Counted from the first letter of the stretch, positions 43,191-58,057 are shown. The stretch is DNA of 59,006 bases from an uncultured Acidimicrobiaceae bacterium (GCA_964569015.1 CAZMSN010000001.1:36439-95444), one strand, 5' to 3'. Translations and numbers: made by a program. The notes: generated by a model not told the origin, from the sequence alone.

Positions 43191-46058
43191 GTGATCAACC
43201 GAGAACCCATCCCCATCCGCACCCGCTCACGCTCGCGTCGCCTGCTGACGATCATCGCAATCGTGGTGGTCGTCCTGCTGCTGATGATGCGCTCGATCGC
43301 CACCTTCTGGACCGACTTCCTCTGGTTCGATTCGGTCGACCAGACCGGGGTGTGGACCACCGTGCTGTACGCCAGGGTGGGGCTCGTGCTGGTCGCCACC
43401 GTGGTCGCTTTCCTGTTGTTCTTCGGCAACCTGTGGCTGGCCGATCGCCTCTCGCCGCGCCGCCCTCCGCTCGCCGGTAGCCCCGACGAGGAGCTGCTGG
43501 AGCGGTACCAGGAGTGGATCGCCCCGCGCATCAGGTGGATCCGGCTGGGCGTCTCGGCCTTCTTCGGGCTGATGGTGGGCCTCGGTGCCGCCGTGTGGTG
43601 GAAGGAGTACCTGCTGTACCGCAACGGGGTGGAGTTCGGGATCACCGATCCGATCTTCCACAACGACATCGGGCTGTACGTGTTCAACCTGCCGTTCTAC
43701 CGGGCGCTGTTCGGTTGGGCGTTCCAGCTCCTGCTGGTGGTGACCATGGTGACGGCGGCCCTGCACTACCTCAACGGCGGCATCCAGATGCAGCTCCGGC
43801 GCCGCGTCAGCCCGGGGGTGAAGGTGCACCTCTCGGTGCTGTTCGCCGTGCTGGCGCTGTTGAAGGCGGTCGGCTACCTGCTCGACCGCTGGGAGCTGCT
43901 CTATTCGGCCCGGGGCCAGGTGTTCGGTGCCTCCTACACCGACGTCAAGGCGCAGGTGCCGGCCCTGAACCTGCTGATCCTCATCTCGCTGGTGGCGGCC
44001 GTGATCCTGCTGGTGAACCTGCGTTTCCGGGGCTGGACGCTGCCGGTGGTCGCCCTGGGGTTGTGGCTGTTCACCTCGATCGTGGTGGGTGGCATCTACC
44101 CACAGCTCGTGCAGCGCTTCCGGGTGGTTCCCGACGAGATCAACAAGGAAGAGGAGTACGTCGCCCACAACATCGAGTTCACCCGGGCCGCATACGGCCT
44201 CACCGACGTCGAAGCGCAGCCGTTCGCCGCGTCCGCCGACCTGGAGTCCGCCGACCTGGAGGCGAACCGGTCGACCATCGACAACATTCGCCTGTGGGAC
44301 CCGGCGGTGCTCAACACCACCTACCGTCAGCTTCAGGAGATCAGGACGTTCTACGGCATCGAGGACGTCGACGTCGACCGCTACCTCGTCGACGGGGAGC
44401 TGACGCAGGTGATGGTCTCGGCCCGCGAGCTCGACGAGAACAACATCCCCGGCGGGGGCTGGGTGAACGAGCGCCTCGTGTACACCCACGGTTTTGGGGC
44501 GGTGGTGAGCCCGGCGAATGCGGTGACGGTGGAGGGCCAGCCGGACTTCTTCGTGCAGGACATTCCGCCGGTGACGGCGGTGGAGAGCCTCGAGATCGAC
44601 GAGGCGAGGATTTACTTCGGCGACTCGGCCGAGTCGGATTACCTGATCGTCAAGACCGCCGAGCGGGAGGTGGATTACCCCATCGGCGAAGGTGAGGAGA
44701 ACGTCGCATACACCACCTACACCGGCAACGGCGGGGTCACCTTGGGCGGGTTCCTTCGCCGGGCGGCGTGGGCGCTGCGCTTCGCCGACGTCGACATGTT
44801 GATCTCGGGCAACCTTTCGGGCGACAGCGTGGTGCTGATGGAGCGCAACATCCGCGAAAGGGTGTTGAAGATCGCCCCGTTCCTGGAGTCCGACGCCGAC
44901 CCGTACCTGGTGGTGGTGGACGGCCGCCTCGAGTGGGTGCTCGATCTCTACACCACCTCGAACAACTACCCCTACTCGGAGTCGGCGTTCACGGGGCGCC
45001 TCGACGAAGGCCCCGGCCTTCCCGACGACTTCAACTACATCCGCAACTCGGTGAAGGCCGTCGTCGACGCCTACGACGGCGACATGACTCTGTACGTGGT
45101 GGACCCGACCGATCCGCTGATCCAGGTGCAGCAGAAGATCTTCCCCGACGTGTTCACCGACGGCGCCGAGATGCCGCAGGCGATCCGGGAGCATCTGCGG
45201 TACCCCGAGGACCTGTTCCGGGTGCAGTCGGACATGTACCAGGCGTACCACATCACCGACCCCCGCCAGTTCTTCTCGCTGACCGACCCATGGCAGATCG
45301 CCCGGGATCCGTCCACCTCGCCGACGGATCTGCGGGCCACCTTCAAGACCGTCGACGGCAATCCGTTCCGGCCGATGCTGCCGTACTACCTGCTGATGAG
45401 GCTGCCGGGTGAGGAGGAGCTGACGTTTCTCATCATGCAGCCGTTCACCCCGGCGGACCGGCCCAACATGGTGTCGTTCATGGTGGCCAAGAGCGGTCCC
45501 GACGACTACGGGCACATCATCGACTACCGGCTCCCGGCAGCCTCGGCCCAGGACGGCCCGGGCCAGGTGGGGGACCTCATCAACCAGAACACCGACATCT
45601 CTGCCGAGTTCACCTTGCTGGGCCAGGGCGGCTCGCAGGTGATCCAGGGCAGCATGCTGGTGATCCCGATCGAGGAGTCGCTGCTGTACGTCCAGCCGAT
45701 CTACATCCGGGCCAACTCGGCGGGCAGCGGCGACACGACCGGGATTCCGGAGTTCAAGCGGGTGGTGGTGTCGTTCGACGGGCGGATCGAGATGCGGGAC
45801 ACCCTGGCCCAGGCGCTGGCGGCGGTTTTCGACGGCTACACCGCCCCGGGGGAGCCCAGCAACGGTGAGCCGCCCCCCGACGGCGGCGTGGTGGTGCCCT
45901 CCGGGGTGGCCCAGCTGGTAGCCCAGGCCCAGCAGGCCCTGCAGGAGGCCGACACCGCGCTGCGCAACGGCGACCTGGGCACCTACGCCGACAAGGTGAT
46001 CGAGGCGCAGAGCTTCATCGACGAGGCGCAGGGGATCATCGCCGGCACGACCCCGTAG
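43191..46058 (+). CDS. UPF0182-family membrane protein
   Basis: WTDFLWF, DPIFHNDIG, IRLWDP, YTHGFG, YPYS, NYIRNSVK, RYPEDLF, PYYLL. Confidence 0.95.
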   Translation: MINREPIPIRTRSRSRRLLTIIAIVVVVLLLMMRSIATFWTDFLWFDSVDQTGVWTTVLYARVGLVLVATVVAFLLFFGNLWLADRLSPRRPPLAGSPDEELLERYQEWIAPRIRWIRLGVSAFFGLMVGLGAAVWWKEYLLYRNGVEFGITDPIFHNDIGLYVFNLPFYRALFGWAFQLLLVVTMVTAALHYLNGGIQMQLRRRVSPGVKVHLSVLFAVLALLKAVGYLLDRWELLYSARGQVFGASYTDVKAQVPALNLLILISLVAAVILLVNLRFRGWTLPVVALGLWLFTSIVVGGIYPQLVQRFRVVPDEINKEEEYVAHNIEFTRAAYGLTDVEAQPFAASADLESADLEANRSTIDNIRLWDPAVLNTTYRQLQEIRTFYGIEDVDVDRYLVDGELTQVMVSARELDENNIPGGGWVNERLVYTHGFGAVVSPANAVTVEGQPDFFVQDIPPVTAVESLEIDEARIYFGDSAESDYLIVKTAEREVDYPIGEGEENVAYTTYTGNGGVTLGGFLRRAAWALRFADVDMLISGNLSGDSVVLMERNIRERVLKIAPFLESDADPYLVVVDGRLEWVLDLYTTSNNYPYSESAFTGRLDEGPGLPDDFNYIRNSVKAVVDAYDGDMTLYVVDPTDPLIQVQQKIFPDVFTDGAEMPQAIREHLRYPEDLFRVQSDMYQAYHITDPRQFFSLTDPWQIARDPSTSPTDLRATFKTVDGNPFRPMLPYYLLMRLPGEEELTFLIMQPFTPADRPNMVSFMVAKSGPDDYGHIIDYRLPAASAQDGPGQVGDLINQNTDISAEFTLLGQGGSQVIQGSMLVIPIEESLLYVQPIYIRANSAGSGDTTGIPEFKRVVVSFDGRIEMRDTLAQALAAVFDGYTAPGEPSNGEPPPDGGVVVPSGVAQLVAQAQQALQEADTALRNGDLGTYADKVIEAQSFIDEAQGIIAGTTP

Positions 46059-46107: not shown

Positions 46108-46181
<74 letters not shown>

Positions 46182-46185
46182 CGAC

Positions 46186-46216
46186 AAGAAGCCTGGGCCA
46201 CGTGCCCGGGCTTCTT
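46186..46216 (+). terminator. Hairpin after tRNA-Met
   Basis: aagaagcctgggc-cacgt-gcccgggcttctt. Confidence 0.75.
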
Positions 46217-46243
46217 GGCGTTTCCGATGGATTTGGACCAAGA

Positions 46244-46340
46244 CGCGGGTTCAACGAGGTTTCGTCGAGCGAGCGCAGCCCAGTTGGACCTAGGGAGTCC
46301 GCGGAGCGATGGTCGACGAGACCTCGCCCCGCCCCCGCTA
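46244..46340 (+). repeat. tRNA-Met 3' fragment 1 with 72-bp T-loop insertion (46255-46326)
   Basis: cgcgggttcaa + insert + ccccgcccccgcta. Confidence 0.92.
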
Positions 46341-46346
46341 CGAAGG

Positions 46347-46380
46347 AAGGCCCCGGTCAGCGAGCTGCTGGCCGGGGCTT
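46347..46380 (+). terminator. Hairpin after tRNA fragment 1
   Basis: aaggccccggtcagc-gagct-gctggccggggctt. Confidence 0.7.
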
Positions 46381-46430
46381 CTACCGTCTGTGGTCTTCTT
46401 CTACCGTCGCTTCTACCGGATGTTCTACCG
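46379..46430 (+). repeat. Four TTCTACCG repeats, candidate integrase arm-type sites
   Basis: Exact copies at 46379, 46399, 46411, 46423. Confidence 0.75.
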
Positions 46431-46433
46431 GGC

Positions 46434-47534
46434 TCAACCTGTAGAAGCAGCCGGAGCGATCAGGTTCTCGAACACTCTGGCGGCTTCAGCTTGCATGCCG
46501 GGGAGGACGTGTTGGTAGGCGTCGATGGTGAACGCCGGGTTCCCGTGTCCGAGTCGTTCCGACACGACCTTGACGGGTACTCCAGCTTTGATGAGCAGGG
46601 TGCCGTGGGTGTGTCGGAGGTCGTGGAGTCGGATGGGTGGGACACCCGCTCTGGCGCTGATCCGTTCGAAGGTTTGGGAGATCGAGTGGGGGTGGATCGG
46701 GTTGCCGGCGGCGTCGGTGAATACCCAGCCGCGAGGTTCGATCCCCACTACTTCTTGTTCTGTCTTCTGCCATGCCTGCCATGCGGTGAGCACGTCGATG
46801 GTGGTTGGGTCGAGGTCGATCGCTCGGCGGGCGTTGTGGGTCTTGCCTCGTGACTCGTGTACCTCGTAGGCAACCGCGACCAGTCCGCGACTGACAGATA
46901 GGCTGCCGGCGGCGAGGTCGATGTCCTCCCAGCGCAGGCCGAGCAGTTCGGAGCGTCGCAGGCCGGTGGTGGCGGCGAGCCAGAAGGCCGGGAAGAGGCG
47001 GTGGCCGGCTGCGGTACGCAGAAACGCTTGTAGCCGTTGGGCGTGGGCCACCAAGGCGACGTTGCGGGTGACGAGGCCCCGGCGGACCGCGTCGTTGAGG
47101 GCGCTGCGGATGATCAGATGCACCTCCAGCACAGTCTTGGGTGCGAGCGGTCTGCGTCCGTCGGTTGGGTGCAGCATCCGCTCGTAGAGGGTTTCGAGGT
47201 GGTGTGGGCGGAGCCGACGGATCGCGATCCGACCGATTATTGGGATGATGTGACGGTCGATCTTGCGCCGGTAGCCGTCCCACGTGCTGGCAGCCAACTC
47301 CAGCTTCTTGCCGGGGAGCCAGCGGGTGGTCACCTAGGCGCCGAAGGTGAGCGAACGGGCGTCGTCGTTGCGACCGTTGAGCTCGGCGGCGAGACGGGCG
47401 GTGAGCTTCTCGGCTTCCTGGCGGTCGGTGCCAGCGGGATGCCAGCTGCGGCGTTCCCGACCGGTGACCGGGTCCAGGCCTTCATAGATGACCGCGTACC
47501 AGCGGTTTCCCTTGTGTGCGACGTAGCCTTTCAT
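46434..47534 (-). pseudogene. Tyrosine integrase 1, split by in-frame TAG at 47334-47336, with a 16-aa internal deletion
   Basis: 66-aa arm-like domain, then GLRRSE, HDLRH, LGH, YQH catalytic motifs; linker shorter than in paralog 2. Confidence 0.9.
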
Positions 47535-47569
47535 GATGGTCCTCCTTTTCGGGTCCGACGTTTGGAACC

Positions 47570-47589
47570 CGGTAGAAGGATCGGTAGAA
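47570..47589 (-). repeat. Two TTCTACCG repeats upstream of integrase 1
   Basis: CGGTAGAA at 47570 and 47582 on + strand, 12-bp period. Confidence 0.7.
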
Positions 47590-47673
47590 GAACAGGAGAG
47601 CTTGCGGAGCGTCTAAAGGTGGACGGTCAAGGCCAGCACTGGGAGCGGCATGACGATATGAGTAGGCGATTGG

Positions 47674-47922
47674 GTGTGCCTCCACCCGCCAGGGCCCAAC
47701 GGGGATACGCCCATACCTTGTCGACTCATACAGGATCGAGCCGGGCCAGGAGGTCAACGTGACGAAGCGACACCGGAAGGGCGCACCTATCCGAAGGATT
47801 GGCAGCGTTGTCGAGGATGCGGAGTGCTCGTGACGCTGGGGACGGACCACGATTGTCAGTCTCTGATGTCAACCGGGAAAGAGATACAACCGGAACTTGG
47901 CGGAGACGACGACGCCGAGTGA
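47674..47922 (+). CDS. Possible small Cys/His-motif protein
   Basis: CRGC...HDC motif and acidic tail; coding status unproven. Confidence 0.3.
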   Translation: MCLHPPGPNGDTPIPCRLIQDRAGPGGQRDEATPEGRTYPKDWQRCRGCGVLVTLGTDHDCQSLMSTGKEIQPELGGDDDAE

Positions 47923-47994
47923 GAACCGCCAGCGGATCGAGCGGTTGCGAGGTGCCCGGCGGGTGGCTTCCGGGTGCGGGGGCGTCGGGACGCG

Positions 47995-48165
47995 AAAAGC
48001 CCCGAGGGAGTCTCGACCGAAACCTTGACCCTCTCGGGGTTTCCGACCAGCTGGAACTCTAAACCCCGAAGGGTTTGGTCTCCCGGAAGGTACCCAAGGT
48101 GGCCTCTCGGCCTCTTCAGGTCCGGTGCGGGGTTGCCCCCGATCCGACCGCCACACCATACGTTC
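47995..48165 (-). ncRNA. Candidate structured non-coding RNA
   Basis: On - strand: consecutive hairpins with GCAA, GAGA and cUUCGg tetraloops, then a long stem with a UUCG loop and a U-tract. Confidence 0.45.
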
Positions 48166-48513
48166 CACCTGACGGCTCCCACAAGTTCACGGACACCGAA
48201 GATTTCGCGTACCAGTCGAGCATTTCACGAACCGGCCCACCTGCGGATGCGGTGTGTTTGGGAGACTGCCGAGTTGTGTGGCGAGTGTCGCGATAGGACA
48301 CCGGGACGCGACAGCGGCGACCTGCCGGGGGGTGGGAAGTCGCCGTTGTCGCGAAGAGCCCATCCAGGGCTGGGCTGTGGAAGCGAGGCTACCTGGGGCT
48401 ATGTCGACGTCGAGTCGGTGCGGAGCCGGACAGACCCCAGCGGTGCGCCTCTCCTATAGGCCAGCCTGGACTCTGTGCGCATGCCTGGGTTGGGGCTGCA
48501 GGAGGATGAGCGT

Positions 48514-51063
48514 TCAGACGGCTGCGGGGAGGGCGAGTTCGAAGGTGCTTTCTCCTGGTTGGTGCTGGTAGGTGAGGTCTCCGTCCATGAGCCGGGCAAG
48601 GTGGCGCGAGATGGTGAGACCCAAACCCAGTGAGGCGGTCAGTCCGGGTGCCTGGTGGGCCCGCTGGTAGGACTCGAAGATGCGTTCGCGTTCTTCTTCA
48701 GGTATGCCGGGCCCGTTGTCGCTGACCGTCACTCGGGCGGTCGTATCGTCACTACTCACGTTGATTCGGATTCGGTCTCCGCCGTAGCGGTGGGCGTTGG
48801 AGATCAGGTTGCGGAGGATCTGCCGGACCCGGGCAGGGTCGGCTGTCGCCCGGACCCCAGACCCGGTGAATTCGATATGTCTGGCATTTGGTTGGTGCCA
48901 GCTCTCCAGAATCTGTGCTGTTTGGGCTCGCAGGTCGACGGGAACATGTACCACGGTGACGGTCCCAGCTTCGGCTTTGGCGGCCGTGAGCAGGTCTTCG
49001 ACGATGTTGGTGAGGTCGGCGCCTTCGTCGGCGATCACCCGGATTATCTCAGTCCGTTCCTCACCCGACAGCCCGGAGGTTTCGTCTTGGAGGACCTGGG
49101 CGTAGCCGACCACTGCGGTCAAGGGGGTGCGCATCTCATGGGCGATCGAAGCGATCAGCTCATTCTTAGAGCGTAATGAGGTTTCGAGCGACTTCCGGGT
49201 GTGCACTTGTTCGGTGATGTCACGAACGATCACCATCGTTTCGTCCGATCCGGGAATGGGGAAGACGCGAGCTTCCCGCTCGCGGAGTACGCCGTCTACC
49301 TCGTACTGGTACTCCCACGACTGGACCTCACCGGACTGGTGCGCCCGCCGATACGCTGATGCCAGCTCGCCGGCCAGTTCCGGCGGCAACGCCTCATCGA
49401 TGTGTTTGCCGACGAACCGCTCCGGAGCGGGAATGAATCCGGGCGCATCGGGAACTTGGTAGGAGAGGTAGGCGCCGTCCGGGCTGAGACGAAAGACCAG
49501 ATCCGGGATAGCTTCGAGCATGGCCCGACTGCGGGCTTCGCTGACCCGCAGGGCCTCTTCGGCCAGCTTGCGTCGGATGCTGGAACTGAGTTGTGCTGCC
49601 ACCGTCGAGATGGTGTCGACCAGGTTCTGATAGTCATCTGGAAGCGACGCGAGGAGGAACACCAGCACAGCCACTGTCTCGTTGCCGCTCAACGCCGGAA
49701 TCCCAACCGCCGCTTGAATCCCAAACCGCGCAGCCACGTCCCTGCGCACAAAGTCCGGGTCGTGAACAACATCGGAGAGCACCACCGGCTGTTGAGAGTT
49801 CCATGCCCGCCCGGGTAGGCCGCGTCCCGGCTCAAAGGTGACCGACTCGCTCGCCTTGCGAAAGGCCTTGAATCTCTCCGATACCGAGTAGAAGGCGTCA
49901 CTGGCCTCCAGCCGGGAACCATCCGCACTCGGTATCCACGCTTCTCCCCCCATCCAGCCGGCGTACTCACATACTCTGCGCAGAACCACCCCGAGCGCAG
50001 TCTCGAGATCATCGCTGGAGGTGATGTCGTCCATGCACTGGTGCAGGAGGCTGCGCTGTTCGAGCAGCTCGTCCTTGGAGCCGATCGATTCCCGCAGTCT
50101 CTCTTCGGTTTCGGCGAGCACGCGACGCTGGTCGTCGATGTGGTCGACACGCCTTCCGATCGTGATCACCACGGAACAGGCGACGGTGATCACAGCGGCG
50201 ATGGCGAGTTGAAGGGAGAGTGAGGGATTGGAGGTCAAAGGGTCCACGACATATCGGGCCAGCAGGGCAATCCCCAAGGAGGCGCCGCACACGATCGGGA
50301 CGTAAAGGCGGATGACTTGTCCGCCGGCACGATTCGACACGATGGGCCGCATCAACCCCAGGTCCGGATCGCAATACAGCACGGACAGGCCGACCGCCAC
50401 GTGAAGGACCGAAGTATTGATGGCCATTTGGGTGGCATGTCCGATCAGACCGGCAAGCTCGACAACTCCCAGCGCGTACCCCAACACCGCCAACGCTGCG
50501 ATCGCCGCTGCGATCGTTGCGAGAATCTGACGGGTCCATATGCTCCGCCGGGTCGCGAGCAGATAGAGCGCAGGGCCAAGAAGCGCATAGTTGATTGCCG
50601 TGTTGGCCCCCATGCGCCCCGGATTCGAGGTCGCTACCGCCCCGAGACCCTCATGGGCGAGGAGCTGATCGAAACCGGTCCAACCGAGGCCGGCCACATA
50701 CTCGACGGTCGTGACCCAGCCGATCAGGGTTACCAGGGTGGCCATTATCACCACGAGCCCGGGCCACCAGCCGCGCCGGTGGGCGACAACACCGAGACCG
50801 GCCGCGCCGATACCCACCGCCGTGTTGGCTTTCATGGTCACACTGCCCGGGATTACCCGGGCCACAATGTCGACTCCCAACCACCAGCCGACCACCAGAA
50901 CCGTCACCCCCGCCACCAGAGCGATCCAGCCAAGCAGCTCCGCCGCCACCCGAAACCGACGGACAAGCACCGGAGCAACCGTGTCCCACCCTTCCGGCCC
51001 GCCATCAGGCTGCATCCCCTCAGGAGGTGGTTCAACCAAAACCTTGTGTGCAGTGGCGGTCAT
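48514..51063 (-). CDS. Membrane sensor histidine kinase (multi-TM, GAF, PAS, HisKA, HATPase)
   Basis: Several TM helices, GLPGRAW GAF, AIPDLVF PAS, AHEMRTP, NLISNA, DNGPGI, GLGL. Confidence 0.92.
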   Translation of the reverse strand: MTATAHKVLVEPPPEGMQPDGGPEGWDTVAPVLVRRFRVAAELLGWIALVAGVTVLVVGWWLGVDIVARVIPGSVTMKANTAVGIGAAGLGVVAHRRGWWPGLVVIMATLVTLIGWVTTVEYVAGLGWTGFDQLLAHEGLGAVATSNPGRMGANTAINYALLGPALYLLATRRSIWTRQILATIAAAIAALAVLGYALGVVELAGLIGHATQMAINTSVLHVAVGLSVLYCDPDLGLMRPIVSNRAGGQVIRLYVPIVCGASLGIALLARYVVDPLTSNPSLSLQLAIAAVITVACSVVITIGRRVDHIDDQRRVLAETEERLRESIGSKDELLEQRSLLHQCMDDITSSDDLETALGVVLRRVCEYAGWMGGEAWIPSADGSRLEASDAFYSVSERFKAFRKASESVTFEPGRGLPGRAWNSQQPVVLSDVVHDPDFVRRDVAARFGIQAAVGIPALSGNETVAVLVFLLASLPDDYQNLVDTISTVAAQLSSSIRRKLAEEALRVSEARSRAMLEAIPDLVFRLSPDGAYLSYQVPDAPGFIPAPERFVGKHIDEALPPELAGELASAYRRAHQSGEVQSWEYQYEVDGVLREREARVFPIPGSDETMVIVRDITEQVHTRKSLETSLRSKNELIASIAHEMRTPLTAVVGYAQVLQDETSGLSGEERTEIIRVIADEGADLTNIVEDLLTAAKAEAGTVTVVHVPVDLRAQTAQILESWHQPNARHIEFTGSGVRATADPARVRQILRNLISNAHRYGGDRIRINVSSDDTTARVTVSDNGPGIPEEERERIFESYQRAHQAPGLTASLGLGLTISRHLARLMDGDLTYQHQPGESTFELALPAAV

Positions 51064-51716
51064 GCGTCACCCCCGGTCGCACCGACAAACAGCCTCCAGC
51101 CACACACGGCCTGAAGCCGATCGCCCACCACAGCGAACATCACGACCGCTGACTCGTCCATCTGCCATGCCTCGTAGACCCTCGATCGTCCGGCGAACCC
51201 CTCACACAGCTCGCAGCAATCAGAGAACGCCACCCCAACCGACCTGACGCACAGCAGATAGACGAAATGGCTCGTCGCTGGTGAAATCGTTGTCGCAACA
51301 ATCCTATCGTTTTTCAACACGGTTCGCCGAGTAACCAGCCAACTTGAAGACCCATCTGCCCGTATGAGACGGGCCCGCCCGACGGGCGAGCAAAACGCTT
51401 CAGCTAAGCCACGGCGTCATCAAGCGACGCCACCCAGATCGCCCAACATGTCGCCTCGCCGACCATCCGCCGAAACCAACCCGAGCGGCACTCACCGAGT
51501 ACCACGATGATCCTTCAAGGCTATACCGGCGTTCGTCGATGAAGCTCGAAACCACCGTGGTGACCAAGTCGCGACATGCCGTCGAGGCCGGTCTATACCG
51601 AGCCTCGCCCACCAAACCGCAAGAGAGGCGCCGGAGCCCTCGATCAGGTCGACAGAACGGCCAATGTTGCGTCTCGATCTGAACCCGACAAGACCGCAAG
51701 GTGGCTAGTTCCGTTG

Positions 51717-51959
51717 ATGCCACGCGAAACGGTACCCAAACCGGAAAGGGTCGAGGCCGATAGCGAGAACGTGAACGGAATCAGCCCACGATGCTATGCC
51801 TGCGGCAATCAGGCTGTGATCCGCGACCGGAATGGCTTGTGGTGCGGCAGATGTGCCCTCAGACACATAGCCGTCGACAACCGGGACGACACAGACCGGC
51901 AACGCCGAGGAGACAAGCCGAGACGGATCACACGGAATCGGCAAAGACACGCCAGGTAA
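51717..51959 (+). CDS. Possible small zinc-finger protein
   Basis: CYAC-x13-CGRC and basic tail; start uncertain. Confidence 0.4.
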   Translation: MPRETVPKPERVEADSENVNGISPRCYACGNQAVIRDRNGLWCGRCALRHIAVDNRDDTDRQRRGDKPRRITRNRQRHAR

Positions 51960-52391
51960 GCCCGACCGCGGTAAGGCTGACAGGCCGCAACGGCCGGCAA
52001 GCCGATTCAGACAGTGAACTACGGTGGCCTGGACCTCGTCGTCTCCGGGGGCTGATCGAACCAGAGCCATACGAGGAGACTCTGCTGGTCATCGACCTGG
52101 CATGTGACCGCTGCACGGCGACGTTCACTGCAGCGGCAGCGTCCGCTTCGCTGCCGTGAACCATCATTCGCCGCCACAAGGACTCGTCTCCTTTCGAGGC
52201 GGGGTGGAGACCACGGAGAGTGGCTGCTTCCGCTCGACTTCCGAGGGTGCCTGCTGAGTGCGTCTGAAGCCAGCCTGAAGCCCAACGACCTGACACAGGC
52301 CGACATCACCCGTCATCCGTTAGCAGCGGTTCTGCTTCATGCCAATGGTGATCATCGTTATCGACTCTTTCATACGCTATCGGGGACCCCT

Positions 52392-52512
<121 letters not shown>

Positions 52513-52516
52513 CGAG

Positions 52517-52553
52517 AAAGCCCTGGTCAGACGGTTGTCTGACCAGGGCTTTT
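52517..52553 (+). terminator. Intrinsic terminator after tRNA fragment 2
   Basis: aaagccctggtcagac-ggtt-gtctgaccagggctttt. Confidence 0.85.
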
Positions 52554-52560
52554 ATCGTGT

Positions 52561-53741
52561 TCAGGCGGTCTTCTTCCGGGGCTTCAACCGGCTTACTCCT
52601 TTCGAGGCGGCGGGGCCAATGAGCTGTTCGAATACGCGGGCGGCTTCGGCTTGCATGCCGGGGAAGACGTGTTGGTAGGTGTCGATTGTGAAGGCTGGGT
52701 TCCCGTGTCCGAGTCGTTCGCTGACCACTTTGACGGGTACGCCGGCTTTGATCAGAAGGGTGGCGTGGGTGTGCCGAAGGTCGTGGAACCGTATTCTCGG
52801 TACACCCGCTCTGGCGCTGATCCGTTCGAAGGTTTGGGAGGTCGAGTGGGGGTGGATCGGGGTGCCGGTGGCGTCGGTGAACACCCAGCCGCTGGGGGAG
52901 ATCCCAACCGCTTCCTGTTCTGTGTGTTGCCATGTATTCCAGGCGGTCAGCGCGTCGACCGTAATAGGGTCGACGTCGATGGCTCGCCGTGCGTTGCGGG
53001 TCTTGCCTCATGACTCATGTATCTCGTGGCGATGGCGACCAGCCCCCGATCGACCGACAAGGTCGCCGCGGCGAGGTCGATGTCGTCCCAACGCAAGCCG
53101 AGCAGTTCGCTGCGGCGAAGGCCGGTGGTAGCGGTCAGCCAGAACGCGGTGAACAAGCGGTGACCGGCGGCGGCACGCAGTAGCGCCCGCAATTGCAGGG
53201 CGGTCCATGCTTGCTGTCCGATCTTCGGTATCGATCTGAGCCGTCGGGCGTGAGCCACGAGTGCCACGTTGCGGTTCACGAGGCCCCGTGTCACCGCGTC
53301 GTCAAGGGCGCTGCGGATGATCAGATGCACTTCAAGCACCGTCTTGGGTGCGAGGGCTCATCGCTGGTCGGTGGGATGGAGCACCTGGTCGTAGACCGCC
53401 TCGAGGTGATCGGGGCGTGGACGGCCGATCGGGATCCGTCCGAGTGCGGGGAGTACGTGTCTGTCGATCTTGCGGCGACACCCGTTCCAGGTGCTCCGAG
53501 CCAGGTTGACCTTCTTTGCGGGGAGCCACTGGGTGGTCAGTTAGGCACCGAAGGTGAGCGAACGCACATGGTCGCTACGTCCGCTGACATCGGCGGCGAG
53601 GCGGGCAGCGACATGTTCTGCCTCTTCGCGGGAGGTCCCGGCCGGAGGCCAGCGTCTCCGCTCTTTGCCGGTGACCGGGTCCAGCCCTTCGTAGATGACC
53701 GCATACCAGCGGTTGTCCTTGCGAGCGACGTAGCCCTTCAT
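52561..53741 (-). pseudogene. Tyrosine integrase 2, multiply disrupted
   Basis: TAA at 53541-53543, TGA at 53358-53360, 1-nt frameshift near 53027, TGA at 53008-53010; GLRRSE, HDLRH, LGH, YQH retained. Confidence 0.92.
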
Positions 53742-53946
53742 GGTCGTCTCCTCTCGAGGCTCGACCTTCGAGCACCCGGCAGAAGGATCGATAGAAGCCG
53801 CCGGTTTTGCAGCCCGGCGTTGGTCGATGGTCGATTCCTCCGCAAGGTCATCCAATATGGAGTTCGCCCGTGGGCGTTTCTTGGCCCTTCTCGCCTTCTC
53901 TCGTCGTTGTCGGGGTGGTCGGACGCGACGAATCATTCGAGGTTCG

Positions 53947-53974
53947 TCTCAGGTGTCTCTCAGCTTCGTCTCAG
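53947..53974 (+). promoter_or_regulatory. Three TCTCAG direct repeats, OmpR/PhoB-type boxes
   Basis: TCTCAG at 53947, 53958, 53969 (11-bp period) upstream of the response regulator. Confidence 0.7.
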
Positions 53975-54043
53975 CTGGGACGGTTTACTGTTCCACCACG
54001 AATCGGAAGGGCAGCATGAGTCTCACGAGATGGCGAGGGTTCG

Positions 54044-54718
54044 ATGCGTTTGCTGGTTGTTGAAGACGAAATCAAGCTCGCCTCGTATCTCAAGCGGGGT
54101 TTGGAGGCCGACGGTCATGCGGTCGACGTCGCCTCAGACGGCGAGGAGGGACTGTGGCTGGCCCGCAACCAGCCGTACGACGTGATCGTGCTCGACATCA
54201 TGCTGCCGAAGCGGAATGGCTTCCAGGTGTGCGCCGACCTGCGAGGGGAATCCATCTGGACCCCGATCTTGATACTGACTGCCAAAGACGGGGAATTCGA
54301 CATTGCCGAGGCGCTCGATACCGGAGCAGACGACTATCTGACCAAACCGTTCTCCTTTGTCGTCCTGTCGGCTCGCATCCGGGCCCTCGCCCGGCGAGGG
54401 GCGCCGGAACGGCCGACCGTGTTGGAGGTCGATGACCTCCGCCTCGACCCGGCCGCTCATACGGTCGAGCGAGGTGGAACCGAGATCAAGGTGACGGCCA
54501 AGGAGTTCTCTCTGCTCGAATACCTGATGCGACATGCCGGGGAGGCGGTCCGCAAGATCGACATCCTCAACGCGGTGTGGGACTGGGACTTCGAAGGCGA
54601 CCCGAATGTGGTCGAGGTATACATCGGGTATCTGCGGAGGAAGATCGACGATCCCTTCGGACGGGCCTCGATCGAAACGGTTCGCGGGGTTGGTTACCGG
54701 TTGAGGGCCGACCGATGA
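54044..54718 (+). CDS. OmpR-family response regulator
   Basis: LVVEDE, LDIMLP, GADDYLTKPF, NVVEVYIGYLRRKID, TVRGVGY. Confidence 0.95.
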   Translation: MRLLVVEDEIKLASYLKRGLEADGHAVDVASDGEEGLWLARNQPYDVIVLDIMLPKRNGFQVCADLRGESIWTPILILTAKDGEFDIAEALDTGADDYLTKPFSFVVLSARIRALARRGAPERPTVLEVDDLRLDPAAHTVERGGTEIKVTAKEFSLLEYLMRHAGEAVRKIDILNAVWDWDFEGDPNVVEVYIGYLRRKIDDPFGRASIETVRGVGYRLRADR

Positions 54719-56142
54719 GCAGCCACCGAATCTCGATCCGCAATCTTGGCGTCCGTGCCCGAACCACGCTGATCGCCACCGCCGTGGTTGGCCTGGTCCT
54801 CGCCGGCTCCGGTGCTCTGCTGGTGGTGGCGACCAGATCAGCGCTGTTCCAGTCCGTCGAGACCACCGTGACCGCCCGTGCGGTCGACCTGGTGTCCCAA
54901 CTCGCCAACGGCACGACGCCTCAACCCGTGCCTCTGATCCGGGGGATCTCGGTCCAGATCGTGAGCGACGGCATAGTCAACTCTTCGACAGACGACATCG
55001 AAGGCCAGCGCCCGATCGTCGATCTCGTCGCGGTCGCCGGTGTCGTGTCGACGGTCCAGGTGCCTTCACTCGATGCTGGCGAGAACGAGGGTGAAGCGCA
55101 CAGTGAGGACGGTGATGAAGGGCCGTTTCTGGTGGCGGTTGCCGGGGTGAGTATCGAAGAGAGGCAGGCGACAGTGCTGGCGGCCGCTTCTCTCGGCGCC
55201 GTGGAGAACGCCACCCGGACCCTCATACCGCTCCTGGCCCTTGGCATTCCCGCGATCACCCTGTTGGTAGGTCTGACCATCTGGCGCCTCACCCGCCGGG
55301 CCTTCCAGCCGGTGGAGGCGATGGCCCGCCAGGCCGAGGCCATCTCCTACCGCGATCTGCATCTCCGTGTGCCGGAACCGAAGCCCGAAGACGAGATACG
55401 GCGGCTGGCGGTGGTGCTCAACCGGATGCTCGAGCGTCTCGAGGCGTCGGTTTCCCGCCAGCGGAGGTTCACGGCCGATGCCGGACATGAGCTGAAGAGC
55501 CCTGTCGCTACCCTCCTCACGATGGCCGAGGTGGCAGAAGCGAACCCGCAGGGTTTCAACGTTGCCCAACTTGCCGCCGACGTTGCCGGTCAGAGCCGCC
55601 GGCTCGCAACCCTCGTTGACGATCTGCTCGTCCTGGCACGAACTGACGAGCACCACCTCGAACTGAACCGCGAGCCGTTCAATCTCGCCGAGGTCGCCCG
55701 TGTCGAGATCAGCGGAGGCGGCCGGGCGCCCGTCTCGATTGACACAAACCGGTTGGAACCGGTACAGGTGTATGGGGACCGTCGCAGGATCGGCCAGGTC
55801 GTGCGGAACCTCCTCGACAACGCCACGCGTCACGCCACCGCAAACGTGCGTATCGAAACGCACGCCACCGGGGGCGAGGCCACCATAAGTGTCGCCGACG
55901 ACGGGCCCGGTATTCCTCCCGCCGATCGCGACATGATCTTCGAACGATTCGTGCGACTCGACGAGGCCCGATCCCGCGAGGCCGGCGGAACCGGGCTGGG
56001 ACTTTCGGTGGTCCGAAGCATCGTCGAGGCACATGGCGGACAGATCGAGGTAGACGACGACCCCGACCTGGGCGGTGCCGTGATCACCGTGGTTCTGCCG
56101 ACCGGCCGGGACCGCGACGAGGCGTCATCGTCTGCGCAGTGA
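54715..56142 (+). CDS. Sensor histidine kinase (2 TM, HAMP, HisKA, HATPase)
   Basis: ATGA overlap with the regulator; DEIRRLA HAMP, ADAGHELKSP, NLLDNA, DDGPGI, GTGLGL. Confidence 0.93.
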   Translation: MSSHRISIRNLGVRARTTLIATAVVGLVLAGSGALLVVATRSALFQSVETTVTARAVDLVSQLANGTTPQPVPLIRGISVQIVSDGIVNSSTDDIEGQRPIVDLVAVAGVVSTVQVPSLDAGENEGEAHSEDGDEGPFLVAVAGVSIEERQATVLAAASLGAVENATRTLIPLLALGIPAITLLVGLTIWRLTRRAFQPVEAMARQAEAISYRDLHLRVPEPKPEDEIRRLAVVLNRMLERLEASVSRQRRFTADAGHELKSPVATLLTMAEVAEANPQGFNVAQLAADVAGQSRRLATLVDDLLVLARTDEHHLELNREPFNLAEVARVEISGGGRAPVSIDTNRLEPVQVYGDRRRIGQVVRNLLDNATRHATANVRIETHATGGEATISVADDGPGIPPADRDMIFERFVRLDEARSREAGGTGLGLSVVRSIVEAHGGQIEVDDDPDLGGAVITVVLPTGRDRDEASSSAQ

Positions 56143-56216
56143 ATTGTGTCGGCGGGCGTTCGTCTCGGCAGGCGACGCGGTCATCGAACGACAACCGATT
56201 GACGAGCCAAACGCGG

Positions 56217-56246
56217 GAGGGCCGGACCCAACCGGGTCCGGCCCTC
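56217..56246. terminator. Bidirectional hairpin between convergent genes
   Basis: gagggccggaccc-aacc-gggtccggccctc, perfect 13-bp stem. Confidence 0.75.
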
Positions 56247-56272
56247 TACACCTGGGCGGCGAGCTGTGAGGT

Positions 56273-56725
56273 TCAACCGTTGGTCGTAACCTCGGCACCC
56301 TCGTTGGCGTCATCGGCGTCGGGGATCCCGTCCCCGTTGTTGCCGACTTCTTCGCCTTCGAACTGGTGGTCGATCCCGTCGATGACCTCGTCATCGGGCG
56401 TTTCGGGCTCGTCTGCCTCGACTTCGTCGGCCTCGTTGGCGTCGGCGATTCCGTCTCCGTTGTTGCCGACTTCTTCGCCTTCGAACTGGTGGTCGATCCC
56501 GTCGATGGCCTCGTCGCCGACGCCTTCCACCTCGCCGGCCTCATCATCGGGAGCCGTCGGCTGGTCAGGAGCGACCGAAGGCGCTTCCGTCTGCGTCTGA
56601 CCGATGGCCGGTGCGGTCTGGGCAGGCGAGCTGGCAGCCGCCGCGATACCCATTGTCCCGAGGGCTAGACCGATCGCTGCTGCGAGGGTGTAGATCCTCT
56701 TGGCCGTATTCTTTTCCGTTGACAT
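56273..56725 (-). CDS. Secreted acidic protein with two 41-aa repeats
   Basis: AGGAGG RBS, signal peptide, DExIDGIDHQFEGEEVGNNGDGI twice at a 123-bp period. Confidence 0.8.
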   Translation of the reverse strand: MSTEKNTAKRIYTLAAAIGLALGTMGIAAAASSPAQTAPAIGQTQTEAPSVAPDQPTAPDDEAGEVEGVGDEAIDGIDHQFEGEEVGNNGDGIADANEADEVEADEPETPDDEVIDGIDHQFEGEEVGNNGDGIPDADDANEGAEVTTNG

Positions 56726-56789
56726 CAAATGACCTCCTGGCTTCTTCGCAGCCCTGTGGGCCGTTGTGAGGACAGCATGCCTCAGTGCA

Positions 56790-56817
56790 CCTGTGGCGAA
56801 GCTGAGTAGACCTGAGA
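56790..56817 (-). promoter_or_regulatory. CTCAG-type repeats upstream of the acidic repeat protein
   Basis: Minus strand tctcagg-tct-actcagc-ttcg-ccacagg; shares CTCAGCTTCG with the boxes at 53947-53974. Confidence 0.55.
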
Positions 56818-57063
56818 CACGGCTGGAGAGCAGGCGCTGCCGATCGCAGTTCTAGCCGTCGGTGGGCGAGGGAGAGCAAGGGCCGTGGTACCGGCAAAGC
56901 ACCGAGAGCCGGCATCACAGGATCGACAAACAACACATGCCATCGCGCGTCCATTGCGCGAGAGGGTGCGATGGGAGGGGCAACAACGCGATATGACGAG
57001 AAACGAAAACCGTCTCTGAGTAGGCGTTTTGCGCATTTCCCCAGGTCGGCGAATCAGCTCCTC

Positions 57064-57188
57064 TCGGGCTCATAACCCGAAGGTCGCGGGTTCAACGAGG
57101 GGTCATCGAGCGAGCGGAGCCCAACTGGGACTTGGGGTTCTTGCGGAGCGATGGTCGATGACCCCGAGCTTCCCCGCCCCCGCTACCA
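57064..57188 (+). repeat. tRNA-Met 3' fragment 3 with diverged about 76-bp T-loop insertion (57096-57171), ending in CCA
   Basis: tcgggctcataacccgaaggtcgcgggttcaa + insert + ccccgcccccgctacca. Confidence 0.93.
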
Positions 57189-57202: not shown

Positions 57203-57236
57203 CAGAAGGGGTCCCGCTTCGGCGAGGCCCCTTCTG
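57203..57236 (+). terminator. Hairpin after tRNA fragment 3
   Basis: cagaagggg...cgc-ttcg-gcg...ccccttctg. Confidence 0.7.
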
Positions 57237-57260
57237 CGTTCTGGAGCATCTACCAGGGAT

Positions 57261-57560
57261 CTACCAAGGCGGTGTGCGGTTCGGACCACGAGCGGCGGCC
57301 GCTGCCGCGAAGATCACGCTTGGTGGCGGCACTCTGCTGAATGTAGCAACCAGGCGCTGCGCGACAGAGCGGCCGATGCCGTTCGCGCCTTCGACAGCCC
57401 ACACCCGATCATCGAACTCGGCGACAGCGTCGAGCATCTCGACCAGCCCCTCGTCGGTGTTGTCGAACCGGCGTCTGGTCTTGATGGTCTCGTCTCGCCC
57501 CCTCACCGAGATCGTGTTCGATGCCTTGTGCGGATCGAGACCGATGATCACTTCGGTCAT
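57261..57560 (-). pseudogene. IS110-family recombinase N-terminal (DEDD) fragment
   Basis: IIGLDPHKASNT...RFDNT...WAVEGANGIGRSVAQRL, then similarity is lost; AGGAG RBS. Confidence 0.88.
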
Positions 57561-58057
57561 TGCCTTCTCCTCTCGTCGATGAATCAGTGAACGACGAGGG
57601 CGGCCAATGCCTCTTCGAGCAGCGCAAACCTCTCTTCAGCCACAACCTCGTCTGAAGTCCAGGCCGCAAGCCATTAATGAGCCACAACCCGAAACCACGG
57701 GCTGGGCAGCCGGTTAACGAGCGAACCATCTCGGACCCCGATCCAGAGCCTGGTCTCGACCCCAGATCACTTCCAGTTCTAACAAGAGGCCGGATCTCGG
57801 GCTTTCCAGCCGGGCTTGGCAGAACGGGACGCGTGTTGTTATGCGTTCGCGTCTTCGCGACACGACGCGAACGCTGTCGGTCCCCTGAGCTGCTAAATCG
57901 ACGGGCGCCGACTCGGCGACCGTCGGCGAGCCGATCCGACGGCTCGTCGGACCGGCCTCTCCCTCGCCGGGCGGGAGGGCCGTATCCACCCCACCGCACC
58001 AGCACCGCCGACATCTAGGAGTAGCGTTCGGGTCGGAGCTCGAGGAAGGGGAAGGAC

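Follow-up and report, generated by a model that had tools for sequence, protein, structure and literature searches.

Downstream of the intact initiator tRNA gene, the stretch of DNA analysed here (59,006 nt from an Acidimicrobiia genome, hereafter the window) holds three 5'-truncated tRNA-fMet copies, and in all three of them T-loop bases 59-60 are replaced by a palindromic insert of 72, 72 and 76 nt. This T-loop insert in tRNA-fMet halves is real and unusual, and has the look of a passenger carried locally by dead attachment sites, not of a bacterial tRNA intron. Direct reading and alignment bear out the shared insertion site claimed in the preliminary description: in every fragment the insert directly follows GGTTCAA, and the AT of the T-loop gives way to the insert plus a C. 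This junction is identical in all copies, with AT lost and nothing duplicated; no direct repeat surrounds copies 1 or 2 that could represent a target-site duplication. The tRNA-derived patterns occur 3-4 times in the window against 0-0.2 expected by chance. An assembly artefact or chimera is barely conceivable. Repeated att sites are typical misassembly spots and many related contigs end there, but the same junctions recur in four other metagenome samples, on five contigs assembled independently, two of which are 100% identical to the window over 2.8-3.8 kb.

The tandem array at tRNA-fMet

The three fragments are internal att sites of tandem small integrase islands at tRNA-fMet. Island 1 runs from fragment 1 to fragment 2, island 2 from fragment 2 to fragment 3, and a remnant lies beyond fragment 3. 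The features of the array are as follows.

46108..46182, plus strand: complete initiator tRNA-fMet gene, its T-loop (GGTTCAAATCC) uninterrupted (ARAGORN; Rfam 65.6 bits)
46183..46243, plus strand: spacer with the tRNA terminator hairpin (~46189-46215) and an inverted partial T-loop copy (GGATTTGGACC), read directly
46244-46340, plus strand: fragment 1 as a whole, 11 nt (CGCGGGTTCAA), the 72-nt insert, then CCCCGCCCCCGCTA
46244..46254, plus strand: 5' side of fragment 1, 11 nt (last variable-loop base, T-stem 5' arm, TTCAA)
46255..46326, plus strand: hairpin insert copy 1, 72 nt, 71/72 identical to copy 2 (101.8 bits)
46327..46340, plus strand: 3' side of fragment 1 (C, T-stem 3' arm, acceptor 3' strand, discriminator)
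46346..46430, plus strand: P' arm of island 1, made up of a terminator-type hairpin (46346-46382) and four arm-type repeats, TTCTACCG, at 46379, 46399, 46411 and 46423
46434..47534, minus strand: integrase 1, tyrosine recombinase with an in-frame TAG at 47334-47336 (Pfam Phage_integrase and SAM_3; tblastn; translation)
52392-52512, plus strand: fragment 2 as a whole, 35 nt, the 72-nt insert, then the same 14 nt as in fragment 1
52392..52426, plus strand: 5' side of fragment 2, 35 nt identical to the gene (tRNA positions ~25-58, from the anticodon stem)
52427..52498, plus strand: hairpin insert copy 2, 72 nt (103.2 bits)
52499..52512, plus strand: 3' side of fragment 2 (CCCCGCCCCCGCTA)
52517..52590, plus strand: P' arm of island 2, terminator hairpin (52517-52552) and degenerate arm repeats
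52564..53741, minus strand: integrase 2 pseudogene with TAA at 53541-53543, TGA at 53358-53360 and a frameshift near 53000
57064-57185, plus strand: fragment 3 as a whole, 32 nt, the 76-nt insert, then the same 14 nt as in fragment 1
57064..57095, plus strand: 5' side of fragment 3, 32 nt (tRNA positions 28-58), preceded by the P arm of island 2
57096..57171, plus strand: hairpin insert copy 3, 76 nt, both conserved blocks intact (85.4 bits)
57172..57185, plus strand: 3' side of fragment 3 (CCCCGCCCCCGCTA)
57205..57266, plus strand: hairpin (57205-57234) and two ATCTACCA repeats (57248, 57259), read directly

According to ARAGORN and Rfam, the tRNA-Met(CAT) gene at 46108-46182 is the sole tRNA of the window, and its C1/A72 together with three G-C pairs in the anticodon stem identify it as a bacterial initiator. 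Sequence comparison indicates that the 3' part of the gene, from 46140 in the anticodon loop to the end, comes from an element. In two other strains (L201 and L212) foreign DNA lies left of 46140 and is joined at CTCATAA, which, together with identity blocks starting at tRNA position 28 or 33 in relatives, points to crossover in the anticodon loop. The insert-bearing fragments are devoid of the tRNA 5' half, nucleotides 1-47 being missing from fragment 1, 1-24 from fragment 2 and 1-27 from fragment 3. The spacer that precedes fragment 1 matches only contigs of the same population and probably represents what is left of an additional element ('element 0').

Behind each fragment come a terminator hairpin and TTCTACCG-type arm repeats, and fragments 1 and 2 are also adjoined by a minus-strand integrase gene, which is the layout found after the intact tRNA in relatives; core, hairpin, arm repeats and integrase stand in the order expected of att copies. 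The P' arm of island 1 is nearly identical in a related locus (L233), and that of island 2 is ~93% identical to the P' arm of another (L124). For integrase 1, the tblastn queries were 385-aa relatives, the lengths of the relatives ranging from 380 to 393 aa. Its TAG sits at a conserved Tyr codon, the remaining 299-aa ORF beginning at the next codon (GTG), and the TAA of integrase 2 falls on the same Tyr codon. As far as the reading frames tell, both integrases are inactivated and the islands are decaying. The hairpin and repeats at 57205..57266 resemble the P' arm of a third island that has lost its integrase, no integrase similarity being found to their right. The neighbouring integrases group with those of tRNA islands and have an N-terminal region of the arm-binding type; there is no cassette array nearby. 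A truncated IS110-family element (57346-57797), whose ends are unrelated to the insert, is the sole transposase trace in the window.

Distribution and structure of the insert

With search filters off, no further copy of the insert was found in the 56 kb of the window outside the three sites, and none in 55 related loci, in 185,579 species genomes, or in viral contigs and plasmid or phage collections. Among JGI metagenomes, it occurs only at these three sites, in five contigs of the same population, and the four metagenome samples that hold this population contain no extra copies. A full-length tRNA-fMet gene with a T-loop insert of 60-90 nt was met in none of the 185,579 species genomes, and a complete insert-bearing tRNA gene is found neither here nor in the five population contigs. 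Clean tRNA-fMet genes adjoin some 50 related integrases, among them those of the nearest relatives of both islands, and the displaced copies at these loci are likewise clean: the T-loop is uninterrupted in ~30 front tRNA-fMet genes and ~9 displaced att copies (integrases of 67-85% aa identity). The nearest relatives of island 1 (L233 and L234) have a clean T-loop, the tRNA of L233 being clean despite its near-identical P' arm. L124, the nearest relative of island 2, is collinear at 87% nt identity, and its attL and attR, both clean, align with fragments 2 and 3 except for the insert, the left flank of fragment 3 being homologous to the attR flank. Since front and displaced copies of the relatives are clean, the insert is no constituent of this integrase family's att site, and the earlier suggestion that it is a functional portion of that site finds no support as a family feature.

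The perfect 14-bp terminal inverted repeat reported for copy 2 was confirmed (11-12 bp in copy 3), and so were the compensatory double changes of copy 3, three in the outer stem and one in the inner hairpin, and the conservation of the blocks TCGAGCGAGCG and GCGGAGCGATGGTCGA. The stem of copy 1 contains one T.G pair. The inserts fold more stably than shuffled sequences, with z values of -2.0 to -4.0 as RNA and -3.0 to -4.4 as DNA, on both strands. The description of the insert as structure-constrained holds only in part: the four double changes are present, but their support is weaker than it looked. All four derive from a single contrast, copy 3 versus the rest, and the observed value was reached in 16 of 500 shuffles. 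The two invariant blocks (11 and 16 nt) stand against 47% of the other columns differing (p ~0.008), which suggests constraint on something.

Copies 1 and 2 are identical at 71 of 72 positions, while their flanks are only 76% identical. Copies 2 and 3 share ~70% identity, with no difference over the 95 nt of their tRNA-derived flanks, and the three diverged stem variants (GTCTCG, GGGTCA and TGGGCA) sit between identical flanks. An allele of copy 1 found in L205 and L212 is a mosaic, its 5' arm (CGAGTGGGCATCGA) being closest to copy 3 and the rest being identical to copy 2. It carries five changes, all in one arm, and no longer folds (z -0.3); the hairpin structure is therefore dispensable in nature. 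The displaced copy S0 is still clean in L201 and L212. Rfam covariance models gave no match to the insert, even at E up to 5, and neither a group I intron signature nor a promoter-like site or U-rich terminator of its own was detected in it. Its junctions show no bulge-helix-bulge, the T-stem and the stem of the insert being separated by a 5-nt/1-nt internal loop in the fold. The search for a source of the 72 nt returned none.

Possible origins of the insert

We tentatively favour a passenger history, in which one palindromic insertion into a non-functional tRNA half spread among spare halves by short-patch recombination, selection excluding the working gene. Integrases of this tRNA-fMet island family cross over in the anticodon loop, each integration supplying a new 3' half to the working gene and displacing the old one downstream, where it is useless. 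The 72-nt palindromic DNA would have entered the T-loop of a spare half once, in place of bases 59-60, and the other spare halves would have obtained it by short-tract recombination (gene conversion) via the identical tRNA-derived flanks. The front copy would never keep the insert because it is the essential initiator tRNA gene. Correction of one arm of the palindrome against the other, together with patch exchange between copies, could generate paired stem changes without selection on RNA. An integrase deletion rejoining the 5' half to fragment 2 or 3 would leave the T-arm of the resulting initiator tRNA gene disrupted, which may in effect lock the islands in. The odd junction common to all copies is expected if the insert was copied along with its flanks, and copying between sites is visible in the near-identity of copies 1 and 2 within 76% identical flanks and in the L205/L212 mosaic. 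However, the divergence between copies 2 and 3 exceeds that between island 2 and L124 (87% identity), with unchanged flanks; already-diverged sources fit this better than divergence in place, unless multi-base patches count as single events. The invariant blocks amid variable columns, the shortness of the homology available for conversion (11-35 nt left, 14-17 nt right), the lack of any source sequence and the clean S0 copy also argue against a passenger.

The T-loop-targeting miniature element of the preliminary description would be a non-autonomous mobile hairpin aimed at the tDNA T-arm/T-loop and mobilised in trans by an enzyme encoded elsewhere, possibly one whose substrate is the hairpin into which the T-arm is extruded in single-stranded DNA. 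Such an origin is possible, if doubtful. One site is occupied in three att copies and empty at the orthologous positions of the closest relatives, the stems have diverged into three variants despite identical flanks, the conserved asymmetric blocks beside variable paired stems resemble a protein-recognised hairpin, and the near-identity of copies 1 and 2 would reflect a recent copying event; confinement to spare halves would follow from the lethality of insertion into a working tRNA gene. The shared site is the part of the proposal that stands, but the same two target bases are lost in every copy without duplication, no copy was found outside these att sites in any of the collections searched, nine displaced tRNA-fMet halves in relatives and S0 are clean, and the window contains no candidate mobilising gene besides the unrelated, truncated IS110-family trace. 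It is unlikely, in our opinion, that the hairpin is a new selfish or cis-acting DNA homing to the T-arm of tDNA copies by structure-dependent insertion or integrase-assisted conversion, with poisoned spare halves making island loss lethal and turning a tRNA fragment into an addiction device. We consider quite unlikely a selected cis-acting island element, be it a protein-bound DNA hairpin or cruciform (e.g. for core-arm intasome geometry, or as an excision 'poison pill') or a structured RNA transcribed with the tRNA fragment. The invariant blocks against variable, mostly complementary stems, the location of each copy between integrase core site and arm-type repeats, the T.G pair of copy 1, which is tolerable in plus-strand RNA, and the excision lock that follows from the array anatomy are all in line with such a role. 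Yet the insert is missing from every related island, including those with near-identical P' arms, the two adjoining integrases have been inactivated, the hairpin is destroyed in a circulating allele, no Rfam match, promoter-like site or U-rich terminator accompanies it, and any disabling mutation would lock excision just as well.

A removable intron at position 58/61 of a bacterial initiator tRNA, each fragment having once been the 3' half of a working insert-bearing gene, is highly improbable. The insert does replace bases 59-60, outside the five-base T-loop core and at a position where archaeal non-canonical introns occur, and anticodon-loop crossover implies that fragments 2 and 3 were once joined to a 5' half, if the inserts are older than the later integrations. 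Against removal of the insert as an intervening sequence, which had also been proposed, the carriers are without a 5' half, the only complete gene is clean and no full-length insert-bearing gene occurs here, in the five population contigs or in 185,579 genomes. Moreover, the junctions form no bulge-helix-bulge, and bacteria are not known to possess the splicing endonuclease; a group I or II intron would have to be far longer than 72 nt, the insert is unmatched in Rfam, and plain loss of the insert would yield TTCAACCCCGC and not the wild-type loop.

Relation to known systems

Palindromic miniature elements such as MITEs, Rickettsia palindromic elements and REPINs are non-coding sequences of ~70-150 nt with a long imperfect hairpin, terminal inverted repeats and paired stem changes, and are tolerated inside structured genes. 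The insert resembles them in size, hairpin, terminal inverted repeats, non-coding nature and paired stem changes. Unlike MITEs and REPINs, it is confined to one context in one population, without target duplication, dispersed copies or a partner transposase or RAYT in view. As a MITE, it offers terminal inverted repeats and neither target duplication, dispersal nor a parent IS with shared ends in the window, related loci or metagenomes; as a REP/REPIN, it lacks further copies across 56 kb of the window and within the same metagenomes, and no RAYT gene was seen in the window. IS1397/ISKpn1-type elements insert into loops of palindromic units, and IS110/IS1111 elements target hairpin repeats. 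The T-arm is likewise a small genomic palindrome with its loop as target, but these are full IS with transposases, whereas the insert has 72 nt and ends unrelated to those of the nearby IS110-family remnant. Archaea possess non-canonical tRNA introns near position 59/60, and cyanobacteria a group I intron in tRNA-fMet. Like them, the insert intervenes in a tRNA gene sequence, at a T-loop position that accepts introns in archaea; unlike them, it resides in gene fragments without bulge-helix-bulge motif or ribozyme core, and, unlike in archaea, the host is bacterial. A group I/II intron is also discounted by the insert's length of 72-76 nt and the absence of an Rfam match at E up to 5. Integron attC sites and the folded attP of CTX phage are imperfect hairpins of 57-150 nt that are linked to recombination and keep their structure better than their sequence. 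The insert shares the imperfect hairpin, the recombination context and the retention of structure over sequence. Unlike attC, it ends in CGAGG and CCTCG without RYYYAAC/GTTRRRY (R''/R') core sites, GTTGAAC being present, by inspection, only at the hybrid insert/T-loop junction on the minus strand, and the adjoining recombinases appear to be of the arm-binding phage type, without a cassette array.

The array itself has close counterparts in tandem tRNA-gene islands with displaced tRNA 3' fragments, whose tyrosine integrases cross over in the anticodon loop (Islander database, PMC4383910), and in tRNA gene fragments left behind by mobile elements (PMC9897764). As in these systems (PMC4383910, PMC9897764), island DNA regenerates the working tRNA, several islands follow one another, their borders are marked by displaced fragments that span anticodon stem to 3' end, and the integrase gene points at the att site, next to arm-type repeats. 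Known displaced fragments are plain, whereas here the integrases are nonsense-mutated and each internal fragment carries the same structured T-loop insert of 72-76 nt.

Hairpin inserts in a tandem array of islands at tRNA-fMet

The only tRNA gene in the window, encoding initiator tRNA-Met(CAT) (46108-46182), is followed by three 5'-truncated copies that carry hairpin DNA in their T-loops and delimit two islands.

Truncated tRNA-fMet copies, their inserts and the islands between them
46244-46340: frag1, 5'-truncated tRNA-fMet copy downstream of the intact gene
46255-46326: insert copy 1, 72 nt, in frag1
46.3-52.4 kb: island 1 (frag1 to frag2), with a GAF/PAS histidine kinase as cargo
52392-52512: frag2, 5'-truncated tRNA-fMet copy downstream of the intact gene
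52427-52498: insert copy 2, 72 nt, in frag2
52.5-57.1 kb: island 2 (frag2 to frag3), with a response regulator and a kinase as cargo
57064-57185: frag3, 5'-truncated tRNA-fMet copy downstream of the intact gene
57096-57171: insert copy 3, 76 nt, in frag3

All three fragments match the intact gene through GGTTCAA, enter the insert and resume with CCCCGCCCCCGCTA; relative to the intact gene, T-loop bases 59-60 (AT) are swapped for the insert, and comparison of the junctions with that gene revealed no duplication flanking the inserts. The insert folds into a long hairpin both as RNA (z -2.0 to -4.0) and as DNA on either strand (z -3.0 to -4.4). Once read, aligned and folded, the sequence bore out the preliminary description of split tRNA-fMet copies with hairpin inserts, and the recurrence of the same junctions on five contigs from four other metagenome samples shows that they are not an assembly artefact.

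A terminator-type hairpin and then TTCTACCG-type repeats come after each fragment; behind frag1 and frag2 there is in addition a tyrosine integrase gene, oriented toward the fragment (Pfam, tblastn). Since this order (tRNA 3' end, hairpin, three arm repeats, integrase) recurs at intact tRNA-fMet in about 30 related Acidimicrobiia loci, frag1-3 correspond to internal att sites of a tandem array, a textbook arrangement for islands at tRNA genes (PMC4383910, PMC9897764). An island remnant lies to the right of frag3, and third-position GC is 0.85-0.94 in core genes versus about 0.75 in the islands. The repeated block in relatives extends from tRNA position 28 or 33 through the 3' end, and in two contigs from the window's own population (L201 and L212) foreign DNA meets the anticodon loop CTCATAA exactly, left of window position 46140. 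Both observations place the crossover in the anticodon loop, as expected for tRNA-gene islands of this class (PMC4383910); the T-loop is not the crossover site of these integrases.

The foreign sequences in L201 (1321-1431) and L212 (1-67) differ from each other, have CCGGAAGGAA ends joined at the anticodon loop, and are followed by the tRNA 3' part, terminator, spacer and frag1. They indicate extra islands in those strains, where S0, the clean 3' half of the front tRNA, is itself a displaced fragment. The island array is thus polymorphic within the population. Directly upstream of each integrase start lies another pair of TTCTACCG-type repeats (47570-47589 and 53777-53796, minus strand), inverted with respect to the four downstream repeats; homology of the islands with relatives stops exactly there, so that arm-type sites bracket the integrase module. 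Island 2 also contains a 92-bp direct repeat, 91% identical (56301-56392 and 56424-56515), which is present in the island of the related locus L124 (1019-1247).

Upstream, a UPF0182 family gene (43191-46058) directly precedes tRNA-fMet, a neighbourhood kept in L124, L137 and L156; in L235 the two genes are separated by an ISL3 transposase, infA and a VapBC pair. The spacer before frag1 holds an inverted partial T-loop copy, GGATTTGGACC (46228-46240). The same inverted motif (GGGATTTG...TCAAATCCC) occurs in the Gemmatimonadetes loci L121 (3330-3402) and L123 (2897-3100) in units of 62-64 nt that each finish with the tRNA 3' end; in L123 they form a tandem array behind tRNA-fMet. Such units are possibly footprints of a different integrase class with its crossover in the T-loop.

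Clean sites in relatives and the distribution of the insert

Integrases 67-85% identical to that of island 1 all adjoin clean tRNA-fMet genes, a count that covers 47 species-genome loci and the 3 closest proteins of a 5.8-billion-protein collection, and the approximately nine displaced tRNA fragments in related loci are clean as well. For 4.6 kb the L124 island runs collinear with island 2 (87% identity), and its end sites attL and attR, together with their flanks, align with frag2 and frag3, the insert being the only exception. Likewise, L233 has a clean T-loop next to a P' arm (the hairpin and arm-type repeats after the att core) near-identical to that of frag1. The insert is consequently not a feature of the integrase family, contrary to the earlier suggestion that it may form a functional part of the att site. 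Given that the window and L124 share only about 50% identity in the UPF0182 core gene beside the tRNA, the 87% identity of the islands indicates that they were horizontally moved and that the filled state arose in the window's lineage. That this state is derived also follows from the fact that simple loss of the insert does not restore the wild-type loop. A T-stem variant, GCAGG/CCTGC, is found in L124 (5040-5060, 440-460), L125 and L127, and GTAGG/CCTGC in L233; in L124 it is present both in the regenerated tRNA and in the displaced fragment, which suggests either that att copies evolve in concert or that the island has long resided in that host clade.

A covariance model built from four copies detected no further insert in the remaining 56 kb of the window (filters off) or in 55 related loci. 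Among 185,579 species genomes, the split T-arm GTCGCGGGTTCAA-N60-90-CCCGCCCCCGCTA gave no insert-bearing match, its matches being clean tRNAs and then short 3'-end remnants (Gemmatimonadetes, Microbacteriaceae); a pattern of the two conserved blocks did not find the insert there or in IMG/VR viral contigs, nor did blastn in plasmids and phages. A 16-mer scan of species genomes with GCGGAGCGATGGTCGA was unspecific and yielded chance matches only. The two-block pattern recovered the insert from JGI metagenomes on just five contigs, at the same three sites and from the same population. Rfam holds no match to the insert, look-ups for further strains returned no exact-protein record for the window integrase and histidine kinase, and such T-loop inserts were not described in the literature searched. 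Taken together, the negatives in the window, related loci, genomes, metagenomes and viral, plasmid and phage sets rule out a common REP-like repeat, a possibility raised at the outset, and argue against a widespread mobile family; within this genome, the searches covered the window.

Exchange among the copies and inactivation of the integrases

Copies 1 and 2 differ by one base (71/72 positions the same), while the hairpin-integrase modules next to them are 76% identical, so sequence must have passed recently, at least once, between two sites 6 kb apart. Copy 3, about 70% identical, keeps TCGAGCGAGCG and GCGGAGCGATGGTCGA whole and displays four double changes that maintain pairing. Copy 1 of L205 and L212 (98-99.7% identity to the window) differs in its 5' arm (CGAGTGGGCATCGA; five changes in six bases) with its 3' arm unchanged, and the hairpin is lost (z -0.3). 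The nearest sequence to this variant arm is the arm of copy 3, two substitutions away; apart from this, only chance 9-12-mers turned up when a local origin was sought for the insert and the variant arm. Such a mosaic arm indicates that short patches are exchanged among copies, and the unfolded allele that the hairpin structure is not indispensable.

In both integrase genes, one and the same conserved tyrosine codon, situated where the arm-binding N-terminal region meets the core-binding domain, is replaced by an in-frame stop.

In-frame stops in the island integrases
47334-47336, minus strand: integrase 1 (island 1), TAG, with GTG immediately next
53541-53543, minus strand: integrase 2 (island 2), TAA

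The codon encodes tyrosine (TAC or TAT) in 15/15 relatives. A conversion patch common to the two genes is unlikely, given their different neighbouring bases, and the coincidence suggests that they were inactivated in parallel or that a split protein was selected for. Right of frag3 lies a truncated IS110-family element (57346-57797, minus strand; ORF 57261-57560), reduced to its left end and N-terminal DEDD domain (Pfam E 4e-5), and the third island's integrase seems to have been deleted along with the remainder of this element. Full copies of 1.5 kb with two ORFs (DEDD_Tnp_IS110 and Transposase_20) occur in L237 (5766-7284) and L238 (5754-7307); their ends are unrelated to the hairpin, of which the fragment is therefore not the source. 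About 235 nt of non-coding left end precede the ORF, the expected position of a guide ('bridge') RNA in such elements.

Origin of the insert and comparison with known systems

The reading that we rank first, and hold tentatively, is a single palindromic insertion. Palindromic DNA would have entered once, into a non-functional tRNA half, and short-tract recombination would have carried it to the other spare halves, with purifying selection excluding it from the working initiator tRNA gene, the front copy. The 'compensatory' stems may result from self-correction of the palindrome together with patch exchange. Anticodon-loop recombination between the working gene and frag2 or frag3 would fuse its 5' half to an insert-bearing 3' half, so that island loss would cost the initiator tRNA gene. 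However, divergence between copies 2 and 3 exceeds that between island 2 and L124, the tRNA-derived flanks of the two copies are unchanged, and the differences between copies avoid two blocks (p about 0.008), all in tension with purely local divergence. If each paired stem change and each clustered patch is taken as one event, about 11-13 events are left, near the number that 13% divergence would allow, but the tension stays.

Diverged variants and conserved blocks are accommodated by the runner-up, a T-arm-targeting miniature mobile hairpin whose visible copies are confined to non-essential T-arms; this part of the preliminary proposal survives as a less likely alternative, with no support from dispersal, target duplication or a mobilising gene. 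More doubtful still is a selected cis-acting DNA or RNA element, which is missing from all relatives, sits beside dead integrases and has an unfolded allele. A removable intervening sequence, also proposed initially, is highly improbable because no complete insert-bearing gene, its first requirement, was found, and the insert provides no evidence for tRNA introns in bacteria.

If the single-insertion reading holds, the locus represents a clear natural case of decay and homogenisation of a tandem island array, in which att repeats swap short patches and the same codon is knocked out in both integrases, and it cautions that compensatory-looking changes in a palindrome do not prove a functional RNA. 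Were the hairpin instead directed actively to T-arms, or favoured because it poisons spare tRNA halves, small DNA would have a new way of exploiting tRNA genes and of stabilising genomic islands, and the insertion site so defined would be highly specific.

Inspection led to the rejection of several further readings, none of which fitted both diverged copies: a K-turn, a tRNA-like cloverleaf, a D-arm mimic, attC, IS200/IS605 or IS91 target logic, and likeness to arm-type or P-arm motifs. The insert likewise fails the tests for attC, BHB-introns and ribozymes. In size and shape it resembles MITEs, Rickettsia palindromic elements and REPINs, but it shows neither the target duplication nor the dispersal by which those elements are defined. 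The description that suits it best is that of a lineage-restricted variant among small palindromic insertions, unusual in occupying one precise T-loop position in every spare att copy.
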